The translations under genes and the position numbers were made by a program. DNA of 64,000 nt from Fimbriimonadales bacterium (GTDB lineage: Bacteria > Armatimonadota > Fimbriimonadia > Fimbriimonadales > JABRVX01), in NCBI GenBank assembly GCA_045862955.1, contig BTVI01000011.1:3187-67186 (forward strand), written 5' to 3'. Each line of letters opens with the position of its first letter. Position 1 is the first letter of the stretch. Positions 8,056 to 43,752 of this stretch are shown piece by piece. Under the pieces are notes generated by a model that was not told the origin of the DNA, did no database searches, and saw nothing but the letters and a program-made list of their open reading frames with translations.

Positions 8056-8082
8056 GTCACGCTGACCCTGTCGAAGCGTGCG
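8056..8082 (+). repeat. Short hairpin motif GTCACGCTGACCCTGTCGAAGCGTGCG (family copy 1)
   Basis: Same motif recurs at 11498-11524, 11905-11930 and inverted at 11986-12011. Internal 6-bp stem CACGCT/AGCGTG. Confidence 0.6.
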
Positions 8083-9046: not shown

Positions 9047-11446
9047 ATGAACGTACCTGGCCGCCTCGGGTCCCTGCCTACGCTCTTCCTGCTCTCTGCG
9101 CTGCTTACACTATTTGGCCCTACGGCCTGGGCGGCTCCGGGGCCACGCACCACGATCCTCGTCCCCCTGTCCGCCTCGCCGAGTTGGAAGGACATGGCAT
9201 TCCTCGCCGCCGTGCCAGCCGCCACAGTGGCTAACAACGGAGCGCCATCGTTGATCGCACTCGAGGAGACGTTGCAGGTTGGTCCCGAGGTCCAGGACTA
9301 TGCGCGCAGGTACCACCCAGACCGGTGCGTTCTCATCGCCGAAGAGCGGGTCGAGATAGCGCTCGGCCCACGCAAGGCGAGCACGACCCAGGCCAAGTCG
9401 GCCCTCGAGGCCTCTGTGGGACTCAGCAGAGCGTTCTGGAAGTCCAGTCGCATGGCGGTCGTCTGCTCAGAGGACGACTACGCTTCGGCCCTCGTGGCTG
9501 CTCCGCTCGCTGCCCTCCTGAAGTCACCGCTACTGTTCGCCCGCGGGCGGGGCACGTCCGATGCGACGGTCAAGGAACTGACGAGGCTCGAAGTGCGCGA
9601 GGTGATAACCGTAGGTCCCGTCCGTAGTCTGGCGCACCGACGGAGCTGGAAGCTAGCCGCTTTGGACAACGCGCTGGATGTAGCCGCGTGGGCCAGGGCG
9701 CGTGGGCTCGGGGTCCGCTATCTAGCCGTCGTCAACCCACAGGACCGTAGCCGCGGGGTAGTCAGGAAACTCTCGCTGGCAGGCGCGCTGCTCGCGGCAG
9801 GGCGAGGTGGGCTCGTTGCTCCTCTCGCCTACGACGTTCGCTGGAAGCACCCGAGCAAGGCCTCCCCTCTCGACGGAGCGGTCCCGGCTGGAGTTCCGAC
9901 GTCGGTAGCACCCGCCAAGGCAGGCAGCATCGTGCTCGACGGAGAGGCGTACCCCTTCGTCTTGACGGGTGAGCCGGAAGAGCGGCACCTGCGACTATCG
10001 ATCGACGCGAATCGGGATGGGCAGTACGGCCAGGTGGGGGAAGGTCCGTTCGCTTCCGGTGACACCGTACGGCTTGGAGGCAAGACGTACGCGATTTCCC
10101 TCGGCACGCGCACCGGCTTCGGCAAGACCGATGTACACCTAACATGGCCGACGGCGGAGCAGCTCTGTCGTGACCTGCGGGGCTTTTACCGCGCGATCGG
10201 AGCGCCGCCGGAGCATCTCTGTCTCGTCGGCTTCCCGGACGCCATCCCGCAGGCCATTATCGGCCACGGCGGAGTGGTAGAGGAGCAGGTGTCCGACTTG
10301 CCCTATTCCAACGCAGACGAGGACCCCTTCGCCGAAATAGGGGTGGGGCGCGTCATCGCCGAGAACGTGTCATTTGCGACGCTCTACGCCAGCCGCGTCC
10401 TGACCTACCACGACTTGCTCAGTGCCGAGTGGCAGAACCGGGCTTGCCAGGCCGAGTGGGAAACTTCCTTCAGGGGCTTGTTCGAGAACGTAGGCTTCGA
10501 GGCGAGCTACGTACACACCGAGGAGGCTTTGGCGTGGGAGAAGCCTCCGGCAAACGGAAACCCCGGAGTTCGCGAACAGAGCTTTGGTCAGAACTCGCCT
10601 CTGGCCAACTGCGCCGCGATCACCCACGCTAGCCACTCCTGGTGGCGTGCCCTCGGCAGCACCTTTTCGTGGGATGCGACCGTGCTTATGGCCCCTGCGG
10701 TCGTCGAGTCGGGCGGCTGCGGCACGGCCTGCATCGATCGCGAGCCCGACTGTCGGTCGGTCGTTGCGCGCCTGTTTCGCCAGGGTGCGGTCGCTTTTCG
10801 TGGGGCCACGCGGGAGAGCCCGGCGGAAAGCCAGCCAGGACGTCAGGAGTTCTGGAACGGAGTGCTAGCAGGAGCCTCTGTCGGACAGGCGCATAGGCGC
10901 GCGGCGAATAGCACCATGCTTGCAGTACTGGACCTGAACGAAGGGCCCGAGGGCATATACCGCTACTCCCTGAACATCCACACGCTGTTCGGCGATCCCG
11001 CGCTTGTCATGTACCTACCAGCGAAGCCACGGTCGCGGCCGGCATGCGTATCCGTGGAAGGTGACACGGTCTCCGTGCACGCTCCGGAGAGATGGTTGCC
11101 TGTCGAGTTCACCCCTCCTTCGGACTGGAAGGAGTGGGAGGGCAAGCACCTGTACGTGGTTCGTGGAGCGGGAGCCTATGCACTGTCCGACTGGTGCGGG
11201 CAGGGCTACGATCTCGAGCAAATGTATGTCACCGTGGAGTTCACGTCCCGCAGACGTGTCACGAGCGTGAAGCAGGTGCAGACACCCCCAGCGCCGCTCG
11301 GATGGCGAGGAACTTGGCACTGCGATCCCAACCCGGACGGCTCATACACCTACCGCTGGGCGGTGCGACTGATCGACTTCGACCAGATCACGGGAAGGGT
11401 GAAGAGCGCCATAGACCGCCTCGACTACCAGGTGTCATTCGAGTAG
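9047..11446 (+). CDS. Secreted protein: three CWB2-like (cell-wall-binding repeat 2) units + clan CD (C25/gingipain-like) peptidase-like region
   Basis: Signal peptide ...LTLFGPTAWAAP. CWB2-like ...VVCSEDDYASALVAAPLAALLKSPLLFARG...VREVITVGP. Later SDLPYSNADEDPFAEIGVGRVIA, and a His...Cys pair ITHASHSWW...VVESGGCGTAC. Motif-level call only. Confidence 0.45.
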   Translation: MNVPGRLGSLPTLFLLSALLTLFGPTAWAAPGPRTTILVPLSASPSWKDMAFLAAVPAATVANNGAPSLIALEETLQVGPEVQDYARRYHPDRCVLIAEERVEIALGPRKASTTQAKSALEASVGLSRAFWKSSRMAVVCSEDDYASALVAAPLAALLKSPLLFARGRGTSDATVKELTRLEVREVITVGPVRSLAHRRSWKLAALDNALDVAAWARARGLGVRYLAVVNPQDRSRGVVRKLSLAGALLAAGRGGLVAPLAYDVRWKHPSKASPLDGAVPAGVPTSVAPAKAGSIVLDGEAYPFVLTGEPEERHLRLSIDANRDGQYGQVGEGPFASGDTVRLGGKTYAISLGTRTGFGKTDVHLTWPTAEQLCRDLRGFYRAIGAPPEHLCLVGFPDAIPQAIIGHGGVVEEQVSDLPYSNADEDPFAEIGVGRVIAENVSFATLYASRVLTYHDLLSAEWQNRACQAEWETSFRGLFENVGFEASYVHTEEALAWEKPPANGNPGVREQSFGQNSPLANCAAITHASHSWWRALGSTFSWDATVLMAPAVVESGGCGTACIDREPDCRSVVARLFRQGAVAFRGATRESPAESQPGRQEFWNGVLAGASVGQAHRRAANSTMLAVLDLNEGPEGIYRYSLNIHTLFGDPALVMYLPAKPRSRPACVSVEGDTVSVHAPERWLPVEFTPPSDWKEWEGKHLYVVRGAGAYALSDWCGQGYDLEQMYVTVEFTSRRRVTSVKQVQTPPAPLGWRGTWHCDPNPDGSYTYRWAVRLIDFDQITGRVKSAIDRLDYQVSFE

Positions 11447-11497
11447 TGTTGCTTCGCACCGGTCGCAAAGCTCCCGAGCCAGGGACAGCGCAGACCC

Positions 11498-11524
11498 ATC
11501 ACGCTGATCCTGTCGAAGCGTGCG
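11498..11524 (+). repeat. Short hairpin motif ATCACGCTGATCCTGTCGAAGCGTGCG (family copy 2)
   Basis: Near-identical to 8056-8082. Lies 52 nt after stop 11446. Confidence 0.6.
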
Positions 11525-11618
11525 GCCTCTTCCGAAATCGCGTCGACCCGACAGCGTCGGCGTTCGGGTGCTACGTGGAGTTTGCAGGCCACAGAGTGGG
11601 TTGCTGCTGCTCTTCTAT

Positions 11619-11849
11619 CCCCCCACATCCGCGATGTGGAGGGTAGAGTAGTGATAGGAACCTGTTGCTGCTATCCCTCCACATCCGCGATGTGGAGGGT
11701 AGCGTAGCGCCAGGAACCTACCATCCCTCCGCATCCGCGATGTGGAGGGTCGAGTAGCGGTAGGAGCCTACCATCCCTCCGCATCCGCGATGTGGATGGT
11801 AGCGTAGCGATAGGAACCTACCATCCCTCCACATCCGCGATGTGGAGGG
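11619..11849 (+). repeat. Palindromic-hairpin tandem array I (5 units)
   Basis: 25-nt core CCCTCCACAT-CCGCG-ATGTGGAGGG starting at 11619, 11675, 11725, 11775, 11825. The last four have an exact 50-bp period. Linkers are near-identical (TAGCGTAGCGCCAGGAACCTACCAT and variants). Confidence 0.9.
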
Positions 11850-11904
11850 ATAGCACGGTTGTAGAACTTCAGCTCGCCGTTTCCCGAGGATGGGTTACTG
11901 GCAA

Positions 11905-12011
11905 CGTCATGCTGAGCCTGTCGAAGCATGGGGCCGCCGGCCAAGCGTTTTCGAATTCACTAGGTGGCTGTGGCACTCACAGATGCATGCTTCGACAGGC
12001 TCAGCATGACG
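11905..12011. mobile_element. MITE-like unit: perfect 26-bp inverted repeat with 55-nt spacer
   Basis: CGTCATGCTGAGCCTGTCGAAGCATG (11905-11930) and its exact reverse complement (11986-12011). The arms belong to the same motif family as 8056 and 11498. Confidence 0.55.
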
Positions 12012-12132
12012 GTCCCGGACGGCTGCACGCTCTCACTGACCCATCCTCCTCCTGTGTTGTGGCAGCGCGCAGACCGGCTGGGTCGACGGCCTCCACCGGG
12101 TTGTTGGCGCAGTAGACGTACAGGTTCGCCAT
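12001..12132 (-). pseudogene. RHS core-end stub (orphan remnant)
   Basis: Minus-strand translation (M)ANLYVYCANNPVEAVDPAGLRAATTQEEDGSVRACSRPGPSC*. Carries the NLYxYxxNNPVxxxDPxGL core/toxin demarcation motif. Its 5' end abuts hairpin copy 12133-12157 and its stop lies in a MITE arm. Confidence 0.65.
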
Positions 12133-12257
12133 GCCTCCGCATCCGCGATGTGGAGGGTCGAGTAGCGACAGGAACCTACCATCCCTCCACATCCGCGATG
12201 TGGAGGGTCGAGTAGCGGTAGGAGCCTACCATCCCTCCGCATCCGCGATGTGGAGGG
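12133..12257 (+). repeat. Palindromic-hairpin tandem array II (3 units)
   Basis: Cores at 12133, 12183, 12233 (50-bp period), in the same orientation and with the same linker as array I. Confidence 0.9.
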
Positions 12258-12349
12258 ATAGCAGCAGCAGCAGCTCGTGCCCACTTGGTCCCAGGTATCA
12301 ACGCACCCCCCGTGTCGTAAGCGTCGGCACTACCATACCATCTACTCTA

Positions 12350-12902
12350 CCCTCCACATCGCGGATGTGGAGGGATTGAGGATAGCCGGATGTGGAGGGT
12401 AGAGTAGTGACAGCAACATCGTTCCCAGGCCACCGTGTGCGCTCACGCCTGGCGGAGCGCTGCGAGATACCGGGGCATCGCGTCCATCACTCCTCGTACC
12501 TTGCCATCCCTCCACATTCGCGATGTGGAGGGATAGCATCCCTGCATACCGGCTCATGCCAACTGCGTCCCAGGGATCAACGCACCCACCCCGTGTCGTG
12601 AGCGCCGTCACCACTACACCCTCCACATCGCGGATGTGGAGGGATGGCCCGTCACCACTACACCCTCCACATCGCGGATGTGGAGGGATGGCACGCATCA
12701 ACGGCCGACTGGCGACAGGCGCAGCCTAGGTCCTCGCTAGCTAGTTGAACCATGGGATCCAATCCCAGTGCCAGTGTTCTGGTGTACCGGGGTTCCCCCC
12801 GTGCGGACCCCACCAATTGCGTGGTGACAGGCCCCATTTGGGTTTGCCTCGCCATGTCCACCCTATTGCTATCCCTCCACATCGCGGATGTGGAGGGATA
12901 GC
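12350..12902. repeat. Dispersed and inverted copies of the same hairpin
   Basis: Cores at 12350 (inverted, loop CGCGG), 12386-12399 (right arm only), 12508 (loop TCGCG), 12619 and 12663 (inverted, 44 bp apart), 12873 (inverted). The last sits in a perfect 15-bp-arm palindrome at 12868-12902, GCTATCCCTCCACAT CGCGG ATGTGGAGGGATAGC. Confidence 0.85.
12741..12866 (-). pseudogene. Trp-rich tail fragment resembling the C-terminus of toxin domain A
   Basis: Minus frame reads IGWTWRGKPKWGLSPRNWWGPHGGNPGTPEHWHWDWIPWFN* (9 Trp in 41 codons). Compare toxin A tails ...HRWGPKGGPSTPWWKWPHYNRRPG...RPWEGW*. The 5' side is cut by hairpin 12868-12902. Confidence 0.35.
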
Positions 12903-12988
12903 GAACCTCGAACCGGTCGAGCTGCGAGGGGTCGGTAGCTACTGCTGGGATGTCCCCCTGCTTCACCATAGCGCTCGTGACGCTAGTC

Positions 12989-13339
12989 CTACCAACCGGC
13001 GCAGGCAAGGGCGATCGCCGCTACCGTCGCGAACAAAGCTAGTGTACAGAGGACGCTCGCAGACATGCACCCGTGACCGCGGTCCCACCTTGCCGCTGCT
13101 TCGCGCCAGTACTCGTCATTGAACCGCTCCGGCGGGGTCACGTACAGCTCCAGCATTCTAACCACCGTGGCCACCACCTTCACGCGCACCGGGCGACCAC
13201 AGGCATCCCATATTCGGTAGTCGACCTCCGTATCGGAGTCGTGGAACTCCATAGCCGCCCCAAGCTCCGCGGCGCTGGCGTAGGACGACGGCTCCTCGTC
13301 CAAGTAGTACTCCACAAGGAGCGGAAATTGCGGCTCCAA
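12989..13339 (-). CDS. Immunity protein A2 (cognate of toxin A2), C-terminal TM helix
   Basis: 116 aa, TTG start 4 nt after the toxin stop. Homologous to 15609..15959 (shared ...EF.DSD...DYR.WD...RPV.VK..AT....LELY..PP...). Ends in hydrophobic VLCTLALFATVAAIALACAG. Confidence 0.7.
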   Translation of the reverse strand: MEPQFPLLVEYYLDEEPSSYASAAELGAAMEFHDSDTEVDYRIWDACGRPVRVKVVATVVRMLELYVTPPERFNDEYWREAAARWDRGHGCMSASVLCTLALFATVAAIALACAGW

Positions 13340-13343
13340 GAGA

Positions 13344-13928
13344 CTACCAACCTTCCCAGGGCCGATGCCTTCCGATCCCGGGCCGCCGGTTGTAGTGCGG
13401 CCACTTCCACCACGGAGTCGATGGCCCGCCCTTGGGCCCCCACCTGTGTACGTCCAGCGAAAAGGTCCGGCTTCCGCGGTGGTAGAAACTCAGGCCGCCA
13501 CCTCCAGTATTGCGATAGCGCATGAGTTTGGCGCCGCGGCCCCACGCCGTACCACCCGCCTGTAGGCCCCCACCGATGCCAATTGAGACTCCGACCCCGA
13601 CTACCTGGCCACCCATGTACCAGCCGGAGCCAGTGTCCACGGTATCGGCAAGCCCTCCGAGGTCCCTAACGATCTCCGTACCTCCGAACGAGAGGAAATC
13701 CCCCATCCCTGCGAAGAAGTCGGTGAGGTTGTCGAACCAGTCCCTCGGCTTCGGAGTGATCTTCGAGACGAAGTCCGCGACTTCCTCCATGTCGTAGCCC
13801 GGGCCCTCCGCGGTCCACAGCCCGTCCCACCAGGGAGCAGGCGTGGCCGTACGCAACCCGGCGGGGTCCGCCGCTTCCACCGGGTTGTTGGCGCAGTAGG
13901 CACAGAGGCTCGGCGCGGAGTCTCGGCG
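13344..13928 (-). CDS. Orphan polymorphic-toxin cassette A2 (RHS junction + toxin domain A)
   Basis: The frame opens right after a TGA at 13929-13931: RRDSAPSLCAYCANNPVEAADPAGLRTATPAPWWDGLW...GGQVVGVGVSIGIGGGLQAGG...HRPWEGW*. Only about 17 core residues remain and there is no credible start codon or RBS. Confidence 0.75.
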   Translation of the reverse strand, partial: RRDSAPSLCAYCANNPVEAADPAGLRTATPAPWWDGLWTAEGPGYDMEEVADFVSKITPKPRDWFDNLTDFFAGMGDFLSFGGTEIVRDLGGLADTVDTGSGWYMGGQVVGVGVSIGIGGGLQAGGTAWGRGAKLMRYRNTGGGGLSFYHRGSRTFSLDVHRWGPKGGPSTPWWKWPHYNRRPGIGRHRPWEGW

Positions 13929-13932
13929 TCAC

Positions 13933-14394
13933 TCACGGTACGAACTCCATCGTGAGCATCCCGATCCAGGTGTGTCCTGGCGGTGGGGGGCCATCTGAGA
14001 GGTCCCATCCACCCCACGAATGCGCCATGAGATGATCGTGATCGGCCACTCCGCGCGCCAAGTGCCTTTCGATGACTTCTTGGATGACCGCTAGCCCTCG
14101 CGAGTCGGCAGCGATGCGTAGCTCAGTGCGCTCCGTCAGGCTGATTAGGATGTAGTGGTCCTCCGTGGTGGTCTCCGTGGCTGTCATAATTACGGCGTCT
14201 ATTAGCCTGTTCTTCCCCCACTGGGGCGTAGCGCAGGTCTCAACACTGCCCAACGCCGAGCTCCCGAAAAGTCTCTCCCCTCCAGATACTGCCAGCGCGC
14301 GAAGCGTGTCGGCCAGCAAGCGTCCACCATCGGCGTCGTAGATCAGATACGCCGTGGGTTCCGGCCGCGAATCGTCAATCTCTGCGCATATCAT
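13933..14394 (-). CDS. Immunity protein B (cognate of toxin B)
   Basis: 153 aa. ATG 13 nt after the toxin B stop, with GGAG RBS. No recognisable family. Position is typical of an immunity gene. Confidence 0.65.
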   Translation of the reverse strand: MICAEIDDSRPEPTAYLIYDADGGRLLADTLRALAVSGGERLFGSSALGSVETCATPQWGKNRLIDAVIMTATETTTEDHYILISLTERTELRIAADSRGLAVIQEVIERHLARGVADHDHLMAHSWGGWDLSDGPPPPGHTWIGMLTMEFVP

Positions 14395-14407
14395 CGGGCT
14401 TGCTCCA

Positions 14408-15301
14408 CTACTGCATCGGCCAGCGTCGCTTCTCGGGCCTTGGCTGCCCGGGGACCCTAGGGTAGTTCACATCCACATGAGGGCCGAAAGGTGGCCCATG
14501 ATCAGGATCTAGGTGATAGGAGAAGCCAGACCTTGGGTTGACGTAGCCACCTCGTCCAGAGACCGGATCAGGACCTCTCACGACAAACCCCTTCTTCCGA
14601 AACATCTCATCCAGTTCCCGGGGGGACTTGCCTTTGAACGGGCTCTGCCATCCTTCACCACCTGTTGCCCCAGCGATCGCGACGCCGATGCCGACGTAGT
14701 TCTCCAGAACCTGCTCGGCTCCGCGTGCCGCCGTCTGTCCGATGGCCCGGCTTCCGGCCCCATACTGATCGATTAGGTCGGCAAGTTCGTCGCCTTCCTC
14801 GGTACCGTCGCGGTACGGGTCACCCGTGATTGCCCCGAAACCAGTCGTACCAGGCGCCAGTTTCGTTTGGTTGTACCCCAGTGCCCACTTCAGCGCGTTC
14901 CACGGCAGGCTCAGGAGCCATTCGGTACCGCTTACGACGCGATCCCACCAGCTCTTTTCATCGGGCAGATTGGTGGCCCGCCCCAACGCCGAGAAGTGTC
15001 GCAGCCCGTCCGGGTCCGCCGCTTCCACGGGGTTGTTCGCGCAGTAGACGTACAGGTTCGGGTGGCCGCCCGCCATGCCGATGGGGTCGCGCTGCAGCCA
15101 GCGGCCCACCGTGGGGTCGTACTCCCTGGCCCCGGCGTGATACAGCCCCGTGGAAGCGATGTACCGGTACCCGACCGACCCGTTCCAGCGGAAGGGATTG
15201 TCATTCACCACGTTCGAGTGGCTCGCAACCAGGGTCCCCCACGCGTGTTGGAGCTCGGTCGGGCTACGCCCTCCCTCTCTCCAACACGCTCCGTGCCACA
15301 A
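14408..15301 (-). CDS. Orphan RHS C-terminal fragment: last ~70 aa of RHS core + ~190-aa toxin domain B
   Basis: NPFRWNGSVGYRYIASTGLYHAGAREYDPTVGRWLQRDPIGMAGGHPNLYVYCANNPVEAADPDGL, then a unique C-terminal domain ending ...GGYVNPRSGFSYHLDPDHGPPFGPHVDVNYPR.... The ORF is preceded by TGA TGA and its start is a TTG with no RBS. Confidence 0.8.
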   Translation of the reverse strand: MWHGACWREGGRSPTELQHAWGTLVASHSNVVNDNPFRWNGSVGYRYIASTGLYHAGAREYDPTVGRWLQRDPIGMAGGHPNLYVYCANNPVEAADPDGLRHFSALGRATNLPDEKSWWDRVVSGTEWLLSLPWNALKWALGYNQTKLAPGTTGFGAITGDPYRDGTEEGDELADLIDQYGAGSRAIGQTAARGAEQVLENYVGIGVAIAGATGGEGWQSPFKGKSPRELDEMFRKKGFVVRGPDPVSGRGGYVNPRSGFSYHLDPDHGPPFGPHVDVNYPRVPGQPRPEKRRWPMQ

Positions 15302-15388
15302 TCATCACCAACGCGGGAGGACTCACCTTAGGATGTCTTCCAAGAAGGGGGCAGGCCACCAGCTGCTCTTTAGGGGCTCCCCCTCTTC

Positions 15389-15544
15389 CTATACCACCAC
15401 GTGCACATGGAGTGTCGCCTGACGGGTCTCTCGATCAACCGCCGCCGGTACTAGGTCGAGCTCTCCATCGTGGATCAGCGATGCCAGTCGATCCAACTCG
15501 GCGCTGTCGTGAACCTCGAATAGGACTGTGCGGTCGTTCACCAT
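15389..15544 (-). CDS. Possible 51-codon ORF between cassettes
   Basis: Below ORF-track cutoff. ATG 15544: MVNDRTVLFEVHDSAELDRLASLIHDGELDLVPAAVDRETRQATLHVHVVV*. Could be an immunity or antitoxin remnant. Confidence 0.3.
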   Translation of the reverse strand: MVNDRTVLFEVHDSAELDRLASLIHDGELDLVPAAVDRETRQATLHVHVVV

Positions 15545-15608
15545 AGTGTTAGTTCAATCTGTCTCAGAGCGAAGCAGTGTGGGCCCAGGCGCCCAGCCCT
15601 AGCCCGTG

Positions 15609-15959
15609 TCAGGACAGTGACGCAAATGCAACCCAAGCCAGCACGAAGCCGATCGCCATGCCACTCCCAAGGAGTGCACAGCCGGGTTTCTGGCGTGCTG
15701 GGGTGGTCACTCGCCAGGACGGATCGGTGTAGTGCGCGGGCGGGTCTTCATACAACTCGAGCAGCTTCAGCTCGGTCGCCCAGGCCTTTACGTGCACAGG
15801 TCTATCTAGTCCATCCCACACCCGGTAATCTGGATCGTCCGAGTCGAAGAACTCCTGATCCGTTGCCAGCTCATCGCCTGAATCGTACAACGTGTCAGCA
15901 TCGGGCGGGTCGTATCTGAACTCCACACGAAACGGTGGCTGTGGTTGCTCCGGTTGCAC
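15609..15959 (-). CDS. Immunity protein A1 (cognate of toxin A1), C-terminal TM helix
   Basis: 116 aa, GTG start 3 nt after the toxin A1 stop. Paralog of 12989..13339. Ends in ALLGSGMAIGFVLAWVAFASL. Confidence 0.7.
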   Translation of the reverse strand: MQPEQPQPPFRVEFRYDPPDADTLYDSGDELATDQEFFDSDDPDYRVWDGLDRPVHVKAWATELKLLELYEDPPAHYTDPSWRVTTPARQKPGCALLGSGMAIGFVLAWVAFASLS

Positions 15960-15962
15960 TAC

Positions 15963-16975
15963 CTACCACCCTTGCCAGGGTCGATGGCGGCCTATGGCGC
16001 CACCTGGTCCTTCGAATCTCCTGTGATAGTGCGGCCACCTCCACCAGGGCGCTGGAGGTCCACCCTTCTTCGGCACCCACCTGTGGATGTCTGCCGTGAA
16101 CACTCGCTCTCCACGGTTGTAGAAGTTCAGGCCGCCACCTCCAGTATTGCGATAGCGCATGAGTTTGGCGCCGCGGCCCCACGCCGTACCACCCGCCTGT
16201 AGGCCCCCACCGATGCCAATTGAGACTCCGACCCCGACTACCTGGCCGCCCATGTACCATCCGGAGCCAGTGTCCACCACATCGCCAAGCCCTCCGAGGT
16301 CCCTAACGATCTCCGTACCTCCGAACGAGAGGAAATCCCCCATCCCTGCGAAGAAGTCGGTGAGGTTGTCGAACCAGTCCCTCGGCTTCGGAGTGATCTT
16401 CGAGACCAGCTCGGCAACGTCCTCCATGTCGTAGCCTGGGCCATCGTTCGTCCACAGCCCGGCCCACGCAGGTCCCCGGGTGGCCCGGCATCGCGGAGCT
16501 CGTGCGGGGCAGGCGACTCTGTAAAGTGCAGGAATGAACGGACCCCGTCAGGATCGATTGGATGACCCGTGGTGGTTGAGAACGCTAGCGCTGAGCCGTC
16601 CACATCGTAGACGTAGTAGCGGTCAGCCCACCCCGTTCCGTCGTGGAACCAGTTCAGACCCTTGCTAGCCGCCTCGCCAACTTGCTTCAGGTGGATGAAG
16701 GCAGTTCCGAGCAGGTTGCCGATCGCGCGATTGGCGCCGTGCTCGTTTGCCTGAGGAGCTATGACGAAGGACAGGTCAATGGGCAGTTGGCCGACAACCG
16801 GTGCAGACAGCGCTATGCGCCCGCCGCCGGTAAAGGCACCCCCGGCTCGCCACTGCGTCTGTGGCGTCTGGTCTGGAATCGTGCTCTGCGCCCGGACAAA
16901 GGCAGCGCTTGGTGCGAATAGCACCCCGAGTAACGCGATTCCTCTTGTCACGAAGGAGACCATCATCGTCCGCAT
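15963..16975 (-). pseudogene. Signal-peptide mini-RHS-like toxin A1, frameshifted at the DPxGL junction
   Basis: ATG 16975 (GGAGGG RBS): MRTMMVSFVTRGIALLGVLFAPSAAFVRAQS...RYYVYDVDGSALAF...SPAPHELRDAG. The frame then changes at 16483/16484 into ...ATRGPAWAGLWTNDGPGYDMEDV...toxin A. Both frames are open across the junction. Confidence 0.65.
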
Positions 16976-17109
16976 GAACGAACCCTCCGTTGTCGTTTCG
17001 CCAGTGACGCTTCGCGAAATGGCGTACACGGTCATTCTGCCAGCATACGGCTTCTTCCTGCCAGGTACTTTTACGGGTTTTCGCCTTCTTGACGCGCAGC
17101 CCAACCGCA

Positions 17110-17142
17110 ACCGGCCCGGGGGAGGTGGTTGCCCGGGCCGGT
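17110..17142 (-). terminator. Hairpin terminator after the PFOR operon
   Basis: ACCGGCCCGGG ... CCCGGGCCGGT (11-bp stem, 11-nt loop), 32 nt after stop 17174. Followed on the minus strand by TTGCGGTTGG. Confidence 0.5.
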
Positions 17143-17173
17143 AGGTGTCGGGTCTAAGGAGGAGGGAGGTGCG

Positions 17174-19396
17174 TTACAGCGTCGGGTCCTCGTGCATCGC
17201 CTTCAGGCGTCGCCAGCGGCGGTCCACCTCGGCTTGCAGGTCCGCGATCTCTTGTGCGTGGTTCTCTCCGCGAAGGTAGACGCCCGCCTTGCCCATTGCC
17301 CCAAAGAGCTCTTCCACGCCTATTTTCTTTCCGGTCGCCTCGGGATCATAGTTCAGTTTCGTGATCCCGTTCTCGATTTCCAGCAGCGGGAAGAAGCAGC
17401 TGTCCAGCGCTTTCTGCACGACTTCGGGCCCTGCCCAGTCGGGCGTTACCCAGTTCAGCGGGCACACGGAGAAGGACTTCACGAACACGAAGTTGCCGTC
17501 CCTTACGTGCTGTTGCGCCTTACGCGCCTTTCGAATGGCATCTTCCACGTGGGTTTCCGCCACGGTCGCGATGTATCGGCAGTGCGTGCCACGCATCAGT
17601 TCGATCATGTCTTTGTGGTGGAAGGCCTTGCCGCCCGGAGAGGTGGTAGTGAAGAGCCCCTTCGGCGCCGTGTAGCATAGCTGCGCACCCGTGTTCGCGT
17701 ACACGTTATTGTCGTACTCGAAATAGATGAACGGGTGGTTGCGAATGGCTGCACTCAGCAGCTGGTCGAGGCCGATGTCGCCCGACCCGTCTCCGCCCAC
17801 TGCGATCACCGTGGTCTCCTCGGTGATCAGCCCCTTGGACCGAGCCAGGCGGTATGTCTCGACGATTCCCACCGCCGTGGACGAGTTGTTGTGGAACAGG
17901 TTGTGCATGTAGGGCACGCGGAACGAGGTGTCCGGGAATCCCGTGGTGACGACCATGCCGCACCCGGTGTTGAACAGCAACACGGTGGGTCCATCGATTC
18001 CAGAGAGGAAGATGTCCAGGTTCACGAACGCACCGCACCCTGGGCACGACTGCGGGTGAGCGATGCGGTGTGGCATGTCCGAGGCAAGGGTGCGCAGCGT
18101 CTGAATATTCACTCGCTCTCCCAGCCCTTCGTTCACCACGAAGTCCTTCGGGTCTTCGGGTTCGAACCGCTTGGTCGGCAGCTTCTCGGGCGAGCCGGGC
18201 CAGTGGCCGTAATAGTCGAACTTCGGCACCTCTTCGCCGCGGTTAGCGGCCAGTGCCTGCCCGAACAGCTTCTCCGCATCCTGCCACGTGAAAATGAGAC
18301 CGCCGAGGCCGTACACTCGGGTGAGCAGCCGGCAGTCGTTGCGCTCCTCCTGAAGCACGGTCGCAATCTCGTTGGTGACCCAGCCGGCCGGGCCTCCGTA
18401 CTGATCGGCGCGCTCGGCGATCAGCGCGGTCTTCGCGTTCCTGAAAGCTTCCGCCACCTCCTTGGAAGGGAAGGGGCGCAGTACGCGAAGCGAAATGGAG
18501 CCTACCTTGTCGCCCTTCTCGCGCAGCTTGTCCACGGCATCACGGATGGTCTCGGATGCCGAGCAGAGCGAGAACATCACCGTCTCCGGCTTGTCCTCCG
18601 TGCGGTAGGTGTCTATGATGTCGTACTTGCGACCCGAGAACTTCGCATAGTCCTCGAGGATGCCCGGGATGACCTCCATGGCTTCCTTCATCGCCAGGTG
18701 GAGCTGGTACTTGTTGTTGATAAGGTCGTCGTTCATGTATGGCCCGAAGGTCTTCGGGTTGTGCACGTCGAGGATAGAGGGACGCGGAGGCTTCGGCCCG
18801 ATCCACGCCTTTACATCGTCGCGGTTGGAGAAGATCTCGATGCGCCGCGTTCCGTGACTAGTGAAGAAGCCGTCGTACACCACCATCGCCGGCAGGCTCA
18901 CGCGCTCTGCCCACTTCAGCGCGATGATGTTCATATCGTACACTTCTTGCACGTTGTTGGCGAGGAGGATCAGCCATCCTGTGCCGAGCGTGTGCAGAAA
19001 GTCGGAGTGGTCGCACTTGATGTTGAGCGGGGCAGAGACCGCGCGCGCGGCGATGTTCATCACCATCGGCAGCCGAAGGCCGGACAGCACCGGCAGCTCC
19101 TCGAACTTCAGCAGCAGTCCCTGGGCGGATGTCACGTCTACCGCCCTCGCGCCCGCCGCCGCGGCTCCCGTGCAGATGCCGATTGCCGCCAGCTCGCTAT
19201 TAGCGGGCACGAACACCATGTCCAGCTCGCCCTTTGCTATCTTCGCGGCGACCGCTTCCCCCACTTCGCTGGACGGTGTGATCGGATAAAAGCCCTCGAG
19301 GTCGTACCCGATAGCGGCGATGGCCTCGGCAGCGGCGTAGTTGCCGCTGAGGACGGCCACCTTCTGTTCGGCAGTCTTATGCGTTAACAGCGTCAC
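17174..19396 (-). CDS. 2-oxoacid (pyruvate-type):ferredoxin oxidoreductase, fused alpha-beta subunit
   Basis: 740 aa. N-terminal PorA-like LSGNYAAAEAIAAIGYDLEGFYPITPSSEV. C-terminal PorB-like CPGCG...GGDGSGDIGLDQL TPP-binding region. Confidence 0.85.
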   Translation of the reverse strand: MTLLTHKTAEQKVAVLSGNYAAAEAIAAIGYDLEGFYPITPSSEVGEAVAAKIAKGELDMVFVPANSELAAIGICTGAAAAGARAVDVTSAQGLLLKFEELPVLSGLRLPMVMNIAARAVSAPLNIKCDHSDFLHTLGTGWLILLANNVQEVYDMNIIALKWAERVSLPAMVVYDGFFTSHGTRRIEIFSNRDDVKAWIGPKPPRPSILDVHNPKTFGPYMNDDLINNKYQLHLAMKEAMEVIPGILEDYAKFSGRKYDIIDTYRTEDKPETVMFSLCSASETIRDAVDKLREKGDKVGSISLRVLRPFPSKEVAEAFRNAKTALIAERADQYGGPAGWVTNEIATVLQEERNDCRLLTRVYGLGGLIFTWQDAEKLFGQALAANRGEEVPKFDYYGHWPGSPEKLPTKRFEPEDPKDFVVNEGLGERVNIQTLRTLASDMPHRIAHPQSCPGCGAFVNLDIFLSGIDGPTVLLFNTGCGMVVTTGFPDTSFRVPYMHNLFHNNSSTAVGIVETYRLARSKGLITEETTVIAVGGDGSGDIGLDQLLSAAIRNHPFIYFEYDNNVYANTGAQLCYTAPKGLFTTTSPGGKAFHHKDMIELMRGTHCRYIATVAETHVEDAIRKARKAQQHVRDGNFVFVKSFSVCPLNWVTPDWAGPEVVQKALDSCFFPLLEIENGITKLNYDPEATGKKIGVEELFGAMGKAGVYLRGENHAQEIADLQAEVDRRWRRLKAMHEDPTL

Positions 19397-20390
19397 CGGT
19401 CTTTACTTCCTTTCTCCCTGCGGGATTCTCGGCCACGAGGTCCAGGTGCTCTGCCTCGACGGCCTGGGTCAGCGCTTTGCCCTTCTTGGTCTCCGGACAA
19501 ACGTAGATGCACCGGAGGCACCCTTTGCAGAAATCGTAGTCGATGCCGATCATCTGGCCACCACGAAACACTACCGAGCCAGGATCGGGGCAGGTGAAGT
19601 AGCACTTCACGCAGTGGATGCATGCCGCGGCATCGAAGATGGGAATGAGCCCAGCGCGCATGGTCTTCGTGGAGCGGATGTTCAGATGCTCGACGTTCTC
19701 CACGACCGCGCCAATCTGCTGGTTCTCGTAGCCGATGTCGGGCTTCCTGTCGTAGTCCACGGGCACCAGCGGATACTTGCCGTCGGCGGGGTAGGAGGCG
19801 AAGACGCAGTTTGTCGCCGCTGCCTCGTAGGCCGCCAGGTTCGCATCCTTCAGCTTCGGCCACTGCCCGGCGATCATCTCCTTCATTTTCTCATCCGAGA
19901 AGCCCAGCGTGTGGGCCAGCAGGGCGAAGAGGGGGATGTTGATGCGAGACTTGGTGCTCGTCGCTATCTCCGTCGCATCCAGGCAGATGATGCGGCCGCT
20001 GTGCAGCTTCAAGCGGTCGCGCACCTCGTCGGGAGTGAGGCGGGTGTTGACGATGACCGTGGCATTCTCCTGAAGCCCCTCGTTTAGGCGCATCGCTTGG
20101 ATCAGGTGCTCGCGGAACACGACCAGAATGTGCGGAGTTCTCGTCGGTCCGACTTGGCGAACGGGCGTACCTACCTCACACAGTTTCACCGAGACAGAAG
20201 TCGGAGTGCCCTTTTTCTCGGAGCCGTATGCCGCGTCGTAGCCGCCGTCCAGGTCCATCACCTGAACGGCCGTATCGAACAGCATCTTGCCGAGCGAGTT
20301 GGCCCCGTCTCCCCCCAGCGCCACCATGGAGATGTTACAGAAACCAAGTTCGTCTCGATAGGGCAATCGAGACTCAGTCGAGCTGGACAT
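19377..20390 (-). CDS. 2-oxoacid:ferredoxin oxidoreductase, fused gamma-delta subunit
   Basis: GGDGANSLGKML...YGSEKKGTPTSVSVKL (gamma), then two 4Fe-4S motifs CIHCVKCYFTCP and CKGCLRCIYVCP (delta). ATG 20390 with GGGAGGA RBS. Overlaps the alpha-beta gene by 20 nt. Confidence 0.85.
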   Translation of the reverse strand: MSSSTESRLPYRDELGFCNISMVALGGDGANSLGKMLFDTAVQVMDLDGGYDAAYGSEKKGTPTSVSVKLCEVGTPVRQVGPTRTPHILVVFREHLIQAMRLNEGLQENATVIVNTRLTPDEVRDRLKLHSGRIICLDATEIATSTKSRINIPLFALLAHTLGFSDEKMKEMIAGQWPKLKDANLAAYEAAATNCVFASYPADGKYPLVPVDYDRKPDIGYENQQIGAVVENVEHLNIRSTKTMRAGLIPIFDAAACIHCVKCYFTCPDPGSVVFRGGQMIGIDYDFCKGCLRCIYVCPETKKGKALTQAVEAEHLDLVAENPAGRKEVKTGDAVNA

Positions 20391-20438
20391 GCTTATCGTA
20401 TCCTCCCTATCGTTGCGGCGCCAGCGTTCCATTCCGAA

Positions 20439-32161: not shown

Positions 32162-33019
32162 CTACACATATCGGTCGAAAAGGTCGTCTAGCGTGTCACC
32201 GCGAGCGAGGCCACGCTCCGCCCGCTCCGCAAGCGCCTCTTCGAATGTCGGCTTCCTCACTTGTAGCAGGAGGCCCAAGTAGATTGGGTTGGTGGAAGCG
32301 GCCCTCTCGAATGCCTGCACTCTATCCGAAACATCGTGGTCCTCCGGAAGGGGCACGACCTTCTCCTTGTACGCATCGAAGGTGTCCTGCTTGTTGAACG
32401 TCACGCACGGGCTGATCACGTCAATCCAAGCGAAGCCCTTGTGCTCGATAGCGGCAGCGATCAGCTCGGCCAGGTCGTTAGGCTTGCCGGAGAACCCGCG
32501 CGCGATGAAGGTTGCCCCGTAGGTAATGGCCATCTCCAACGGATTGATCGGGTTCTCGATGCTACCTTCCGGAGACGACTTGGTGATGAAGTGCAGGGAG
32601 CTGGTTGGCGATACTTGGCCCTTGGTCAGGCCATAAATGCTGTTGTTCATCACGATGTAGGTGATGTCTGGGTTGCGGCGACATGCGTGAGGTAGGTGCC
32701 CCGCACCGATGGAGTACGCGTCGCCATCTCCACCGACTGCCACCACGCACAGATCCGGCCTTGCCGCTTTGATGCCGGTTGCAGTGGGCAGCGTTCGCCC
32801 GTGAACGCCGTGAAGCCCATAGGATGCGATGAACAGTGGCAGCCTGCTGGAGCAGCCGATGCCCGACACCATCACCAGCTTCGCAGGGTCGAGGTTCAGC
32901 TTCACATATGCCTTGACCACCGAGTTGACAACCCCATGATCCCCACAGCCTGGGCACCAGATCGGTTTCAGCTCGGCCCGATAGTCGCTCGTCGTTCTTG
33001 TCGCGACGGTGTCAGACAT
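32162..33019 (-). CDS. korB: 2-oxoglutarate:ferredoxin oxidoreductase beta subunit
   Basis: WCPGCGDHGV...VAVGGDGDAYSIGAGH TPP-binding motif, 285 aa. Confidence 0.85.
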   Translation of the reverse strand: MSDTVATRTTSDYRAELKPIWCPGCGDHGVVNSVVKAYVKLNLDPAKLVMVSGIGCSSRLPLFIASYGLHGVHGRTLPTATGIKAARPDLCVVAVGGDGDAYSIGAGHLPHACRRNPDITYIVMNNSIYGLTKGQVSPTSSLHFITKSSPEGSIENPINPLEMAITYGATFIARGFSGKPNDLAELIAAAIEHKGFAWIDVISPCVTFNKQDTFDAYKEKVVPLPEDHDVSDRVQAFERAASTNPIYLGLLLQVRKPTFEEALAERAERGLARGDTLDDLFDRYV

Positions 33020-34796
33020 GTGCTTCCTCCTTCGCGTAGGCTGTCCGAATGTATTCCAGTGCGGTCGCCGGCTCGATGGGCATGCCGGTGTCTCGAGTGA
33101 ACGACCTCACGGGCAGGCAGCACTGCGCCCGCACCATGTTGGCAAGCTGGCCGCTCCAATTCATCTCGATGGCTATCAAGCGGTCCACCCTTTCCGCGAA
33201 TCGCTCGATCTGAGCGACCGGAAGCGGATGTACCATCTTCGGGGCAAGCAGGGCGACTTTCATCCCTAGGTCGCGAGCGGCTTCGAGCGCCTCGCGGACG
33301 GGGGCAACGCAAGAACCCCATGCTATCACACCTAAGTCGGCGTGGCCCTCTTCGCCGAACCTGTACACGAACTCGTCGGCGTGGTGTTCCAGGAGGTGGC
33401 TGAGCTTGCGGAATCGCTTGGCAGACATCAGTGCGGTCGCTTCCGGAGAATAGGCGGGGTCGCCGTGCTCGTTATGCTCCAGGCCGGTGGCGGTGTACTG
33501 CAGCCCTGGGGTGCCCGGTCGCGGCATGGGTGAAATGCCGTCTGGCGTGTTCTCGTATCGCTTTAGCACGTAACCGCTCTCCGACGGGCTGCCATTCGGC
33601 CCGAGCCATCCGTCTGGCACCACTTTTCGCTCCCATCGGGGGACCCGGTCGGGGTCGAAACGGGGTACCGAGACTTTCGACGCGGACAGCGCTTGCTCGG
33701 ACAGAATGATCACCGGGACCTGGTAACGCTCCGAGATATTGAACGCCTCGATGGTCGTATAGAAACAGTCCTCGACGCTGATGGGGGCGAGCACGACGCG
33801 GGGCGACTCGTTGTGAACCCCGTAGGCCGCAAGGTTCAGGTCACCCTGCGACGTCTTGGTAGGCATGCCGGTACTAGGCCCGCCACGCTGCACATCCACG
33901 ATGACTACGGGTATCTCTGCCATACCCGCTAGGTTGATTTGCTCTACCATCAGCGACAGTCCGGGGCCCGAAGTGGCGGTCATCGCCTTGTGCCCTGCGT
34001 ACGAGGCGCCAATGCACATGCCCAATGCGGCGATCTCGTCTTCCGCCTGGATCATGTGGCCGCCGAAGCGGGGAAGCTCCACGGCGAGCGTCTCCATGAT
34101 CTCGGACGCGGGAGTGATGGGGTAACCCGCGTACAGATGCAAACCCGAAGCGATGCCTGCGAGCGCCACAGCTTCGTTGCCAGTCACCAGCATCGCGTCC
34201 ACCGGATCGCCGACGGGCAGCGGCTCGATCTCGCTGGACGATAGCTCCTTGATCTTGTCGCGTCCCGCCCGAAAAGCGCGGAGGTTCAGGTCGACTACCT
34301 CTGCACCCTTGCGCTCGAATTGAGAGCTGACGAAAGCTTCGGCAAGGTCCGTCGGCCCCCCTAACGCGGTCCAGATGGATCCGAAGCACACCACGTTCTT
34401 GGCCAGCCTGAAGCCTATCTCCTTGGTAGCGATGTGCGTGAACGGCACGGGCATCAGACGAACATCGGACGTGTCGTCGATGTGCACGGAGTCCACGTCG
34501 TACACCAGAGTGGAACCTGGCACCATGCCGGACTTGTAGCGGTCGTACCCTTCTTGGTTGAGGGCGACCATGATGTCCGCTTGGTCGCCAGGAGTCAGAG
34601 GGGGATCGCGCCGGATGCGCAGCTTGAACAGCACCGTGCCGCCGCGGATCTCCGCGGGGAAGGTACGATAGCTGAACACCTGATAGCCGATGCGGGTGCA
34701 GGCCCGCGTGATCATCTCCCCGAGGCTAACGATGCCCTCGCCCGACTCACCCGCGATCCACACGGACAGCTCGACCTGCCGTTCCGACTTCGCCAT
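33012..34796 (-). CDS. korA: 2-oxoglutarate:ferredoxin oxidoreductase alpha subunit (gamma-alpha fused type)
   Basis: 594 aa. N-terminal gamma-like IAGESGEGIVSLGEM...FPAEIRGG, then alpha domain ...LYAGYPITPASEIME. Confidence 0.85.
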   Translation of the reverse strand: MAKSERQVELSVWIAGESGEGIVSLGEMITRACTRIGYQVFSYRTFPAEIRGGTVLFKLRIRRDPPLTPGDQADIMVALNQEGYDRYKSGMVPGSTLVYDVDSVHIDDTSDVRLMPVPFTHIATKEIGFRLAKNVVCFGSIWTALGGPTDLAEAFVSSQFERKGAEVVDLNLRAFRAGRDKIKELSSSEIEPLPVGDPVDAMLVTGNEAVALAGIASGLHLYAGYPITPASEIMETLAVELPRFGGHMIQAEDEIAALGMCIGASYAGHKAMTATSGPGLSLMVEQINLAGMAEIPVVIVDVQRGGPSTGMPTKTSQGDLNLAAYGVHNESPRVVLAPISVEDCFYTTIEAFNISERYQVPVIILSEQALSASKVSVPRFDPDRVPRWERKVVPDGWLGPNGSPSESGYVLKRYENTPDGISPMPRPGTPGLQYTATGLEHNEHGDPAYSPEATALMSAKRFRKLSHLLEHHADEFVYRFGEEGHADLGVIAWGSCVAPVREALEAARDLGMKVALLAPKMVHPLPVAQIERFAERVDRLIAIEMNWSGQLANMVRAQCCLPVRSFTRDTGMPIEPATALEYIRTAYAKEEAHV

Positions 34797-35046
34797 GACT
34801 GCTAACCCTCAAATGAACTCATCATGCAGCGTGGAATCCCTGATCCCAATCGTTACCATTATGCTACGGCGAGCAGTCCTTCGCTACTCGAAATACCGAT
34901 TCCTGCGCGATAGGAGCAGGTTGCTGCGAGATCCGGGGCCCGGATGCATGATACCCTATGGGGATTGAGCGATATTTCACAAAGGCCCCAATGCCCGGCG
35001 ACGCCCTTGCGTGATAATGCACAATGCTGGAGGAGCGTGTTGTCCG

Positions 35047-36444
35047 ATGCCTGCTTGTTCACCATCCTTCAGCCTCACCGTTCGATTGCGTATTCCGAAT
35101 GCACCCGGGATGTTTGCCCGTGTCGCCGACGCCATCGGTGGTGCGGGGGCGGCACTGGGCTCCATCGACCTACTATCCGCCAATCACACCCACAAGGTGC
35201 GGGAGGTAGACGTCCTGGCAAGGAGCGAGGAACACCAGCAGGAGGTCCTGGACGCCATCGCACGAGTCGAGGGTGTGGAAGTGCTCGAGGTGCACGACCG
35301 AACCACCCGAGTGCACGTCGGCGGCAAGCTGGAAGAGCATCCCCGGTATGCCTGCAAGACCTACGACGACCTTTCCATGCTCTACACGCCCGGCGTCGCT
35401 CGAGTGTGCAAGATGATTAAGGACAGCCCAGCACTGGCGCGGCGATATACCATTCGCGGCAACACCGTGGCCGTCGTAACTGACGGAAGCGCGGTGCTGG
35501 GCCTGGGTAATATCGGCCCGATCGCGGCTCTGCCCGTCATGGAAGGCAAGGCCGTCCTGTTCAAGCAGTTCGCGAACGTGGACGCATTCCCGATCTGTTT
35601 GGATACGCAGGACGTCAACGAGATCGTCGAGACGGTCGAGCGCATCGCCCCGGTCTTCGGAGGCATCAACCTGGAGGACATCTCCGGGCCACGCTGCTTC
35701 GACGTGGAGGAGCGCCTGGCCGAGCGATTGGACATCCCGGTGTTTCACGATGACCAGCACGGAACCGCGATCGTCGTCGTTGCAGCCCTCATCAACTCGC
35801 TGAAGTTGCTTCGTAGGAGGGCAGAGGACCTTCGCGTGGTGGTCGCAGGTGCTGGTGCTGCCGGGACGGCCGTGAGCGCGCTGCTCCTCGAAGCGGGCGT
35901 TCGCGACCTAACCGTCGTGGATGTGACCGGTATCCTACACCCGGACGACATGCAGGGCGCGCACCCGAAGCGCAGGTGGCTTGCGCAGGTTACGAACCCG
36001 CGAAGAATTCGCGGAAGCCTGGAGGATGCGGTTCGGGGTGCCGACATGTTTGTCGGTGTCGCAGCCCCGAACATTCTGTCGCTCGATGCCCTGCGGAGCA
36101 TGGCCCCCGACCCGATCGTCTTCGCGATGGCCAACCCAGACCCCGAGATCCTGCCAGAGCTTGCTCAACAGTACGCCGCGATTGTCGCGACGGGCCGGTC
36201 GGATTATCCGAATCAGATCAACAATGTCTTGTGCTTTCCGGGTCTTTTCCGGGGCCTGCTCGATTGCGGGGCGAGGCGCGTGACGATGGGAATGAAGCTA
36301 GCTGCCGCACGTGCGATCGCCTCTACGGTCTCTGACGAGCAGCTCTCGGAGGATTTCATCGTGCCCAGCGTCTTCAACCCAGCAGTGGCCGAGGCCGTGG
36401 CCCGGGCGGTGGCGGCAAACTGTGACTCCTGCAGGGGTTCGTAA
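35047..36444 (+). CDS. ACT-domain NAD(P)-malic enzyme, paralog 1
   Basis: N-terminal ACT-like SFSLTVRLRIPNAPGMFARVADAIGG, then LSMLYTPGVARVC...[21 protein letters not shown]...[17 protein letters not shown] 35047 after GGAGGAG. Confidence 0.9.
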   Translation: MPACSPSFSLTVRLRIPNAPGMFARVADAIGGAGAALGSIDLLSANHTHKVREVDVLARSEEHQQEVLDAIARVEGVEVLEVHDRTTRVHVGGKLEEHPRYACKTYDDLSMLYTPGVARVCKMIKDSPALARRYTIRGNTVAVVTDGSAVLGLGNIGPIAALPVMEGKAVLFKQFANVDAFPICLDTQDVNEIVETVERIAPVFGGINLEDISGPRCFDVEERLAERLDIPVFHDDQHGTAIVVVAALINSLKLLRRRAEDLRVVVAGAGAAGTAVSALLLEAGVRDLTVVDVTGILHPDDMQGAHPKRRWLAQVTNPRRIRGSLEDAVRGADMFVGVAAPNILSLDALRSMAPDPIVFAMANPDPEILPELAQQYAAIVATGRSDYPNQINNVLCFPGLFRGLLDCGARRVTMGMKLAAARAIASTVSDEQLSEDFIVPSVFNPAVAEAVARAVAANCDSCRGS

Positions 36445-43554: not shown

Positions 43555-43752
43555 GCTCCTCTCACCGTTCCTAGGGTAACGCAGATTCGTGAGAACAGAC
43601 GCGGCAGGAGGCAGCGGAATCGCTCGTGCAAAGTTTCGCCGAGTGACCAGAAATATGGCCGGTGCGCACCAATCTTGTGACGCCAAGCGCGGACTCTCGT
43701 GCAATTCGCTTGCCGTTTGGGGCAGAATCGGGCCCAAGGAGCGACAGTCAGA

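Follow-up and report, generated by a model that had tools for sequence, protein, structure and literature searches.

The stretch of DNA analysed here (hereafter 'the window') is a 64,000-nucleotide segment of a Fimbriimonadales metagenome-assembled genome (MAG; GenBank assembly GCA_045862955.1, contig BTVI01000011.1), in which an island of Rhs-type polymorphic-toxin remnants lies on the minus strand between housekeeping genes. The island contains three 5'-truncated Rhs core ends, two families of putative toxin domains, or tips (A, in two copies, and B, in one), and three small downstream open reading frames (ORFs) that are candidate immunity genes, arranged in the order N-A1-ImmA1-o51-B-ImmB-A2-ImmA2-stub (Table 1). 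These elements probably represent a collapsed rhs gene of the Sec-exported type together with its array of orphan tip/immunity modules, an island specific to one lineage and kept mainly for immunity and as a stock for recombination.

Truncated Rhs core ends without a shell

Judged by profile matches, the Rhs identity of the repeated core-end segment is secure and far above chance. The DPxGL-containing segments that the initial annotation proposed as core ends match the NCBIfam model TIGR03696 (Rhs_assc_core) in full in cassette B (76.9 bits against a cutoff of 32.5, model positions 3-76 of 76), and partially, below that cutoff, in the stub (29.1 bits, positions 43-76) and in A2 (16.7 bits, positions 57-76). 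The B core end also aligns with the C-terminal plug of the solved TccC3, YenC2 and type VI secretion system (T6SS) Rhs shells, with conservation of R...D...DPDGL, and the core ends share exact matches of 17-24 nt among copies. When a genome collection lacking this genome and its relatives was scanned with the B core end, only one match in Verrucomicrobiota and one in Selenomonas were returned.

All eight elements listed in the initial annotation lie on the minus strand where it placed them, and its description of the locus as a set of 5'-truncated tip/immunity cassettes without shell, PAAR or VgrG is borne out by ORF and motif scans. A six-frame regular-expression scan finds the three core ends and, within the locus, one loose tyrosine-aspartate (YD) motif; it detects no YD-repeat cluster, YD-rich ORF or further core end in the 64 kb. 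No ORF of the locus matches RHS_repeat or YD-shell profiles, and neither PAAR nor VgrG is present among the window ORFs scanned. The proposed decay of the cassettes from 5' to 3' is not seen: in order, they retain 0, ~85, 19 and 20 core residues, and their coding sequences carry the signature of purifying selection described below.

Cassettes B and A2 and the stub have the form of orphan modules, each being a truncated rhs fragment with a DPxGL boundary, with a small ORF following B and A2, and full-length Rhs proteins elsewhere have tips related to both the A-type and the B-type domain. A full-length rhs gene upstream, the usual companion of such modules, is absent both from the window and from the syntenic site in relatives. 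Nor is there a full-length Rhs protein with an export or delivery determinant in frame with its toxin, the signal peptide of head gene N being out of frame with A1.

Table 1. Features of the Rhs island and adjoining repeats (positions in the window)
Feature	Positions	Strand	Basis
GC-rich inverted repeat: CCGGCCCGGG, 11-nt loop, CCCGGGCCGG	17111..17141	-	sequence reading
Head gene N	16486..16975	-	ORF, signal peptide, sister-locus identity, independent assembly
Toxin tip A1, joined to N in the -1 frame	15963..16485	-	alignment, AlphaFold2 (AF2) model of the A family (on the A2 copy), family alignment
ImmA1, 116 aa, C-terminal hydrophobic tail-anchor	15609..15959	-	ORF, comparison with L002 and L003
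o51, 51-codon ORF	15389..15544	-	ORF; DNA 100% identical in sister species
Cassette B	14408..15301	-	TIGR03696 match (76.9 bits), PDB alignment, AF2, dN/dS
ImmB, 153 aa, Imm32-like	13933..14394	-	Pfam match; ATG, GGAG 9 nt upstream
Cassette A2: core remnant SLCAYCANNPVEAADPAGL (13910-13854) and tip A2	13344..13928	-	partial TIGR03696 match, alignment with A1
ImmA2, 116 aa, C-terminal hydrophobic tail	12989..13339	-	ORF, comparison with ImmA1
Stub: core remnant ANLYVYCANNPVEAVDPAGL (12129-12070) and 22 codons	12001..12132	-	partial TIGR03696 match, repeats
25-nt palindrome cluster, CCCTCCACATC(CGCG/GCGG)GATGTGGAGGG, 13 copies	11619..12897	.	repeat search

The head gene and its out-of-frame join to tip A1

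Head gene N opens with an ATG at 16975, with a Shine-Dalgarno sequence (GGAGG, 16988-16984) 8 nt ahead, and encodes a Sec-type signal peptide (MRTMMVSFVTRGIALLGVLFAPSAAFVRA/QS) followed by ~135 residues. The view that no module of the locus has an intact 5' end must accordingly be revised, the more so as the head of a closely related 'sister' locus (see below) is in frame with YD repeats, a core end and tip B. The reading frame of N continues, out of frame with A1, as far as 16238. The head product (171 residues) has no homologue among 5.8 billion proteins, a first metagenome scan with it gave no matches, and three ORF variants of the head or A1 had no exact-sequence record.

Aligned without gaps to the other A cassettes, cassette 1 agrees at 10 or more of 15 positions from 16485 downstream and at ~6 of 15 upstream (chance level for this composition, ~26%), A-cassette homology beginning abruptly at 16485. 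Because this point lies two codons past the position of DPAGLR, cassette 1 has no core end, and N and A1 are joined in different frames; the homology starts there in the other frame, so that the join itself is out of frame. Upstream of it, the 'YD-like repeat' of the initial annotation has no RHS_repeat match, and its 'degenerate core end' (SPAPHELRD) is 40% identical, ungapped, to real core ends, against the same chance level. A 5-nt insertion, suggested by a MAFFT alignment as the cause of the frameshift, is ruled out by the ungapped alignment, and a -1 ribosomal slip at CCC GGG G, picked out by eye, was dropped for want of a canonical X XXY YYZ in the head's frame.

The N/A1 join is reproduced exactly in a 65-kb Logan contig (run DRR491770), and a 2417-nt Logan contig (run DRR491769) is 100% identical to the window across ImmA1-B-ImmB. 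These matches at 100% to two independent assemblies bear directly on whether the island might have been created in assembly, by chimeric joining of repeats that belong to several rhs loci of the metagenome. A1, A2 and the core ends are indeed repeated, and short-read contigs break in them (L001 ends in A1 and A2, and L011-L014 in the B core), but the repeats are just 77-91% identical, and two further assemblies show the sister locus to be colinear in each of its segments; a chimera is scarcely credible.

Comparison with the sister locus

Two assemblies represent the sister locus: L002, a JGI contig that is the same as L010 of GCA_039961735.1, and, independently assembled, L009 (GCA_964650095.1), at 99.85% identity. 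Its interval between the genes that also flank the island in the window, encoding a pyruvate:ferredoxin oxidoreductase (PFOR) alpha subunit and a C25-peptidase-like protein, is syntenic and spans just 3.3 kb, with the order N-B-ImmB-A-ImmA-o51-B', B' being the first ~130 nt of a second B. Over the first 52 codons the two heads are 98% identical; thereafter the sister head continues in the same frame into YD repeats (~60 residues), a complete core end and tip B, a fusion of 308 codons in all. Relative to the window's intact B, the sister tip B carries a 1-nt deletion and a 1-nt insertion, both of which are seen in the two sister assemblies. On the basis of these alignments, the window and sister loci fit a single ancestral array that has undergone different deletions. 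More distant relatives, in which PFOR is 70-72% identical, have unrelated genes and no rhs after PFOR, which indicates that the island is specific to this small lineage.

Superimposed on this divergence is a ~960-nt tract (window 16170-15209, L002 ~11890-12855), reaching from the toxin part of A1 through ImmA1 and o51 into the beginning of B, that is ~98.8% identical between the two genomes, compared with 88% and 81.6% for the flanking genes. Between ImmA1 and its L002 counterpart there are four changes, all of them nonsynonymous; with o51 identical as well and so high an identity across the tract, the simplest reading is that a module of toxin domain and immunity gene was recently exchanged by lateral transfer.

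The flanking genes have synonymous divergence (dS) of ~0.6-0.7 between window and sister, with ratios of nonsynonymous to synonymous divergence (dN/dS) of 0.04 (PFOR) and 0.18 (C25). The ratios for the cassettes are 0.10 for A1 (against the sister A), 0.115 for A2, 0.09 for the B core end, 0.20 for the B linker, 0.23 for the B toxin domain and 0.37 for ImmB. By this measure the cassette coding sequences bear the mark of purifying selection rather than of free decay.

Purifying selection on the tips is also what would be expected if they were expressed inside the cell from internal promoters and formed, with their immunity genes, modules resembling type II toxin-antitoxin systems. Such expression has been shown for the tips of main and orphan rhs genes in Salmonella Typhimurium, where transcription starts 89 nt upstream of the PxxxxDPxGL-coding sequence and translation starts internally (PMC7043789). 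In the window, the ~85 core residues upstream of DPDGL in cassette B and its open 297-codon ORF favour this possibility, and A1 and the sister A cassette both contain an in-frame ATG (MEDV/MEEV) that is used by gene callers. Counting against this possibility, only ~20 core residues remain in A2 and the stub, a frameshifted tip B is tolerated in the sister lineage, and a sigma-70-like promoter scan of 11400-17300, which does not cover the promoters of this phylum, found no match. On balance we consider intracellular toxin-antitoxin function unlikely.

A proposed history of the island

The preferred reading, a collapsed Sec-type rhs gene with its orphan array, would account for both loci as follows. 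The ancestor would have been a Sec-exported, WapA-like Rhs gene consisting of a signal peptide, an N-domain, a YD shell, a core end and tip B, followed by ImmB and then by the displaced modules A-ImmA-o51, B-ImmB and A2-ImmA2 and the stub. In the lineage of the window, a deletion may have placed head codon ~165 out of frame against A1, with loss of the shell, the first B and its ImmB. A different deletion in the sister lineage would have left the head (~75 aa) in frame with the last ~140 residues of shell and core and with tip B, which later gained its two 1-nt indels. The palindromic repeats described below may have eroded the distal end of the array.

If this account is correct, no toxin would be exported from the locus at present. 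The candidate immunity genes, which have their own starts and Shine-Dalgarno-like sites, would then be the most likely object of selection, presumably protecting the cell against neighbours that fire A-type or B-type tips. The tips themselves may persist as recombination stock, for which the core ends (17-24 nt exact) and the pre-toxin segment of A (121 nt exact) could supply the homology needed for exchange.

Several points weigh against this reading. Residues 53-165 of head N have neither an RHS_repeat match nor a homologue, and we therefore only infer that N once formed the start of a full-length rhs gene. No full-shell rhs was found at this site in relatives. Finally, the low dN/dS values might be explained by selection that acted in donor genomes prior to transfer, or by a present function of the tips.

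Shell-less arrays in the clade

The absence of a shell, which the initial annotation regarded as unusual, is common among related loci. A metagenome scan with the clade's core-end profile yielded 80 loci with 158 core-end ORFs, 121 of which have fewer than 150 residues upstream of the motif; most of these short ORFs lack a start codon or signal peptide. Thirteen are full-length, with 1358-1605 residues upstream, and several more are interrupted by a contig end or a frame break; the clade's full-length signal-peptide RHS genes number 13-18. The full-length genes (1584-1842 codons) open with a segment resembling a signal anchor, and up to six orphans often come after them. Both main-plus-orphan and orphan-only arrays occur, and at least seven other arrays have no YD ORF within ~10 kb upstream (L003/L020, L075, L035, L055, L066, L054 and L018); given these and the large share of short ORFs, lack of a shell is a common condition in the clade. 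The window and its sister are distinguished by the signal-peptide head that survives in both.

This head raises the question of a working shell-less format, a 'mini-Rhs' composed of a signal peptide, a short N-region, a core-end/DPxGL plug and a tip, exported by the Sec pathway and active at the locus now or until very recently. The sister head gene, with its signal peptide, YD repeats, core end and tip B in a single 308-codon frame, has this layout. So, in unrelated genomes, do P0016 and P0019, intact proteins of ~300 aa with a signal peptide, the motif NLYAYVxQNPWTSFDPDGL as the only Rhs element, and a B-type domain; in the case of P0016 an Imm32-like gene follows and no rhs gene adjoins. 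A core end alone is not expected to fold or cleave, and in the solved Tc and Rhs proteins with which the B core end was aligned this segment is the plug of a closed shell. The window head, moreover, has no core end at all, the head genes are broken in both lineages, and most short ORFs of the clade lack the start codon or signal peptide that the format calls for. We judge an active mini-Rhs at this locus to be very unlikely. It is quite improbable, too, that short proteins with a signal peptide and, ahead of the tip, no more of Rhs than a core end or NLYxYxxNNPxxxxDPxGL motif constitute a shell-independent export format shared by Armatimonadota and PVC-type (Planctomycetes-Verrucomicrobia-Chlamydiae) bacteria, with the window and sister loci as recently disabled examples rather than decayed full-length rhs genes. 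The presence of frame breaks in both lineages weakens the toxin-antitoxin and mini-Rhs explanations alike.

In each of two further Armatimonadota-like genomes (L003/L020/L021, ~9900-17700; L075, 9872-13944), an orphan-only array begins immediately downstream of the gyrB stop codon, which suggests preferred insertion sites adjoining housekeeping genes. At another locus (L050, 5725-10729), a 1436-codon YD-repeat ORF overlaps a core-end/tip ORF in a different frame, representing either a full-length rhs gene frameshifted near its core end or a sequencing error.

The A and B tips and their putative immunity proteins

Tip A consists of two parts. The first is a helical pre-toxin segment with a glycine-zipper-like helix, which precedes many different C-termini, including those of proteins of 1400-2900 residues; the second is a ~65-residue His-rich beta domain with invariant H, H, H and P and the consensus DWH...PHYHRRPGIGxHRPWQGW. 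The A-type domain forms the C-terminus of P0322, a 1468-aa signal-peptide RHS protein with seven RHS_repeat stretches, as well as of many shorter proteins and of a DUF637-type protein. A1 and A2 are 91% identical over 300 nt, match exactly over 121 nt of the pre-toxin part and diverge mainly in their last ~55 residues; ImmA1 and ImmA2 are 37% identical. This is the usual co-diversification of toxin and immunity protein. ImmA1 starts with a GTG at 15959, 3 nt past the A1 stop, and an ImmA homologue follows an A-type tip in L003, another Armatimonadota array. The adjoining o51 lacks a Shine-Dalgarno site and matches no family; an o51-like start beyond ImmA2 was considered and rejected, the two sharing just a 10-nt exact match.

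Cassette B comprises a leader unrelated to rhs (15301-15247), the core end (AWG...DPDGL, 15244-14990), a linker and a toxin domain of ~75 aa (~14650-14411) with the motifs NPFKGKS, GGYVNP, SYHID and PHVDVN; a TGA TGA pair stands in frame just ahead of the ORF. Its top protein match, at 100% identity, is the NCBI entry 'MAG: hypothetical protein AMXMBFR61_09710 [Fimbriimonadales bacterium]'. B-type domains are common to RHS proteins (P0008, P0012) and to signal-peptide proteins of ~300 residues that keep only the DPDGL motif.

Neither tip reaches a Pfam or NCBIfam threshold. The AF2 models are of moderate quality (predicted local distance difference test scores of 76 for the A family, modelled on the A2 copy, and 80 for B), that of tip B having one helix and five strands. 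Foldseek searches of the PDB with both models returned nothing better than E=0.8, and PDB sequence searches with the tip profiles gave matches confined to the core-end part. The initial annotation, which could assign no tip or immunity protein to a family, is upheld for the tips. For ImmB an Imm32-like identity emerges in outline: it falls just short of the gathering threshold of Pfam Imm32 (PF15566; 25.7 bits against 27, E=1.1e-5, 46 of 54 model positions), has no match in a PDB sequence search, and belongs to a pairing that recurs, an Imm32-like gene also following the B-type toxin P0016 in an unrelated genome. P0016 itself (L100 764-1974, GCA_947471905.1) is an intact protein of 327 aa with a signal peptide, only the NLYAYVRQNPWTSFDPDGL motif and a B-type toxin domain; the Imm32-like gene that follows it encodes 76 aa, a ParE/antitoxin pair precedes it, and its contig has no rhs shell.

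Imm32 has been described as a partner of Ntox12, Ntox37 and Ntox7 (Zhang et al. 2012, PMC3482391), and the B family keeps the E, K/R and HxD listed for Ntox37. One B-family member, P0005, shows a weak Ntox37 match over the toxin domain (E=0.032, 15.3 bits against a cutoff of 27.8). Tip B has no match to Pfam Ntox37 (PF15535), however, and its modelled helix and five strands differ from the all-beta description of Ntox37. A relationship of the B module to Ntox37/Imm32 may be taken as a lead, not as an assignment.

Relationship to known systems

Published work describes orphan rhs modules as lacking initiation signals of their own, as varying in the upstream sequence they retain and as passing from strain to strain (PMC3150448), with recombination able to re-arm them (PMC3967940). 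The cassettes of the window resemble the orphan rhs-CT/rhsI modules of Dickeya dadantii (rhsC), Yersinia pseudotuberculosis and Salmonella Typhimurium (PMC3150448, PMC3967940) in being 5'-truncated fragments in which a core of variable length ends at DPxGL and a small immunity ORF, starting independently, comes next, with tips related to those of full-length Rhs proteins elsewhere. As in those systems, near-identical modules occur across strains and some are disrupted by repeats or insertions. The cassettes of the window differ in having no full-length rhs gene upstream, the sole gene with a start and an export signal being shell-less and out of frame, and in lying between housekeeping genes of an Armatimonadota MAG rather than in a T6SS/vgrG context.

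Orphan immunity arrays have been reported for the Vibrio cholerae T6SS (PMC5361080) and for Serratia Rhs (PMC10539506). These, too, keep immunity genes without a deliverable cognate toxin and grow by sequential displacement and recombination; in the window, in contrast, the tips are kept beside the immunity genes and their coding sequence is conserved.

WapA of Bacillus subtilis is an RHS/YD toxin with a Sec signal peptide. Head N likewise carries a Sec-type signal peptide rather than a PAAR or VgrG domain, and the full-length genes of the clade have a signal-anchor-like start; unlike WapA-type toxins, the window lacks the shell, and head N is unrelated to the N-termini of the clade's full-length RHS proteins.

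The arrangement is thus of a known kind, common in its lineage, and reveals no new kind of system. It extends to Armatimonadota the picture of Rhs systems as archives of orphan tips and immunity genes, and it offers a rare two-genome view of island rearrangement, in which the same head carries A1 in one lineage and B in the other, with recent module exchange. It also draws attention to two toxin-domain families that have no curated family or solved structural relative: the His-rich 'PHYHRRPGIGxHRPWQGW' family, and the 'NPFKGKS...SYHID...PHVDVN' family with its Imm32-like immunity protein.

Palindromic repeats at the distal end

The stub, in which 22 codons (not 24, as earlier given) follow DPAGL, is cut by palindromic repeats on both sides. 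The 25-nt palindromes that flank it are intergenic, between convergent genes, with eight copies in one orientation (11619-12257) and five inverted (12350-12897), partly as 50-nt tandem units. No copy was found elsewhere in the window or in loci L001-L019, and Rfam gave no match. Palindromic structure and intergenic position fit the repetitive extragenic palindrome (REP) and bacterial interspersed mosaic element (BIME) classes; dispersal does not, all 13 copies lying in one 1.3-kb cluster, and the element therefore seems to have expanded locally instead of belonging to a dispersed REP family. A second palindrome, CATGCTGAGCCTGTCGAAGCATG, occurs in four copies with 0-3 mismatches (8058-8080, 11500-11522, 11908-11930 and 11986-12008), one of which cuts the 3' end of the stub; in spurious ORFs it translates to 'MLSLSKH / LRQAQHD' peptides.

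Gene neighbourhood

The neighbours of the island are the PFOR alpha-subunit gene (17174-19396) and a convergent C25-peptidase-like gene (9047-11446). A terminator that had been placed after PFOR was not recovered: a consensus terminator scan of 11400-17300 gave no match, including after that gene, and the only structure there is the 10-bp GC-rich inverted repeat of Table 1 (17141-17111), which begins 33 nt past the PFOR stop codon, has no T-run and is possibly a transcript end or boundary. The remaining long ORFs scanned in the 64 kb are all housekeeping (complex I, CarB, UvrC, SRP54, malic enzymes, glycosidases, cytochromes). Among them are two separate gene sets for 2-oxoacid:ferredoxin oxidoreductase (17174-20432 and 32162-34796) and two malic-enzyme paralogues (35011-36444 and 43699-45141), and a PIN-TRAM domain protein of 369 codons is encoded at the window edge (384-1493).

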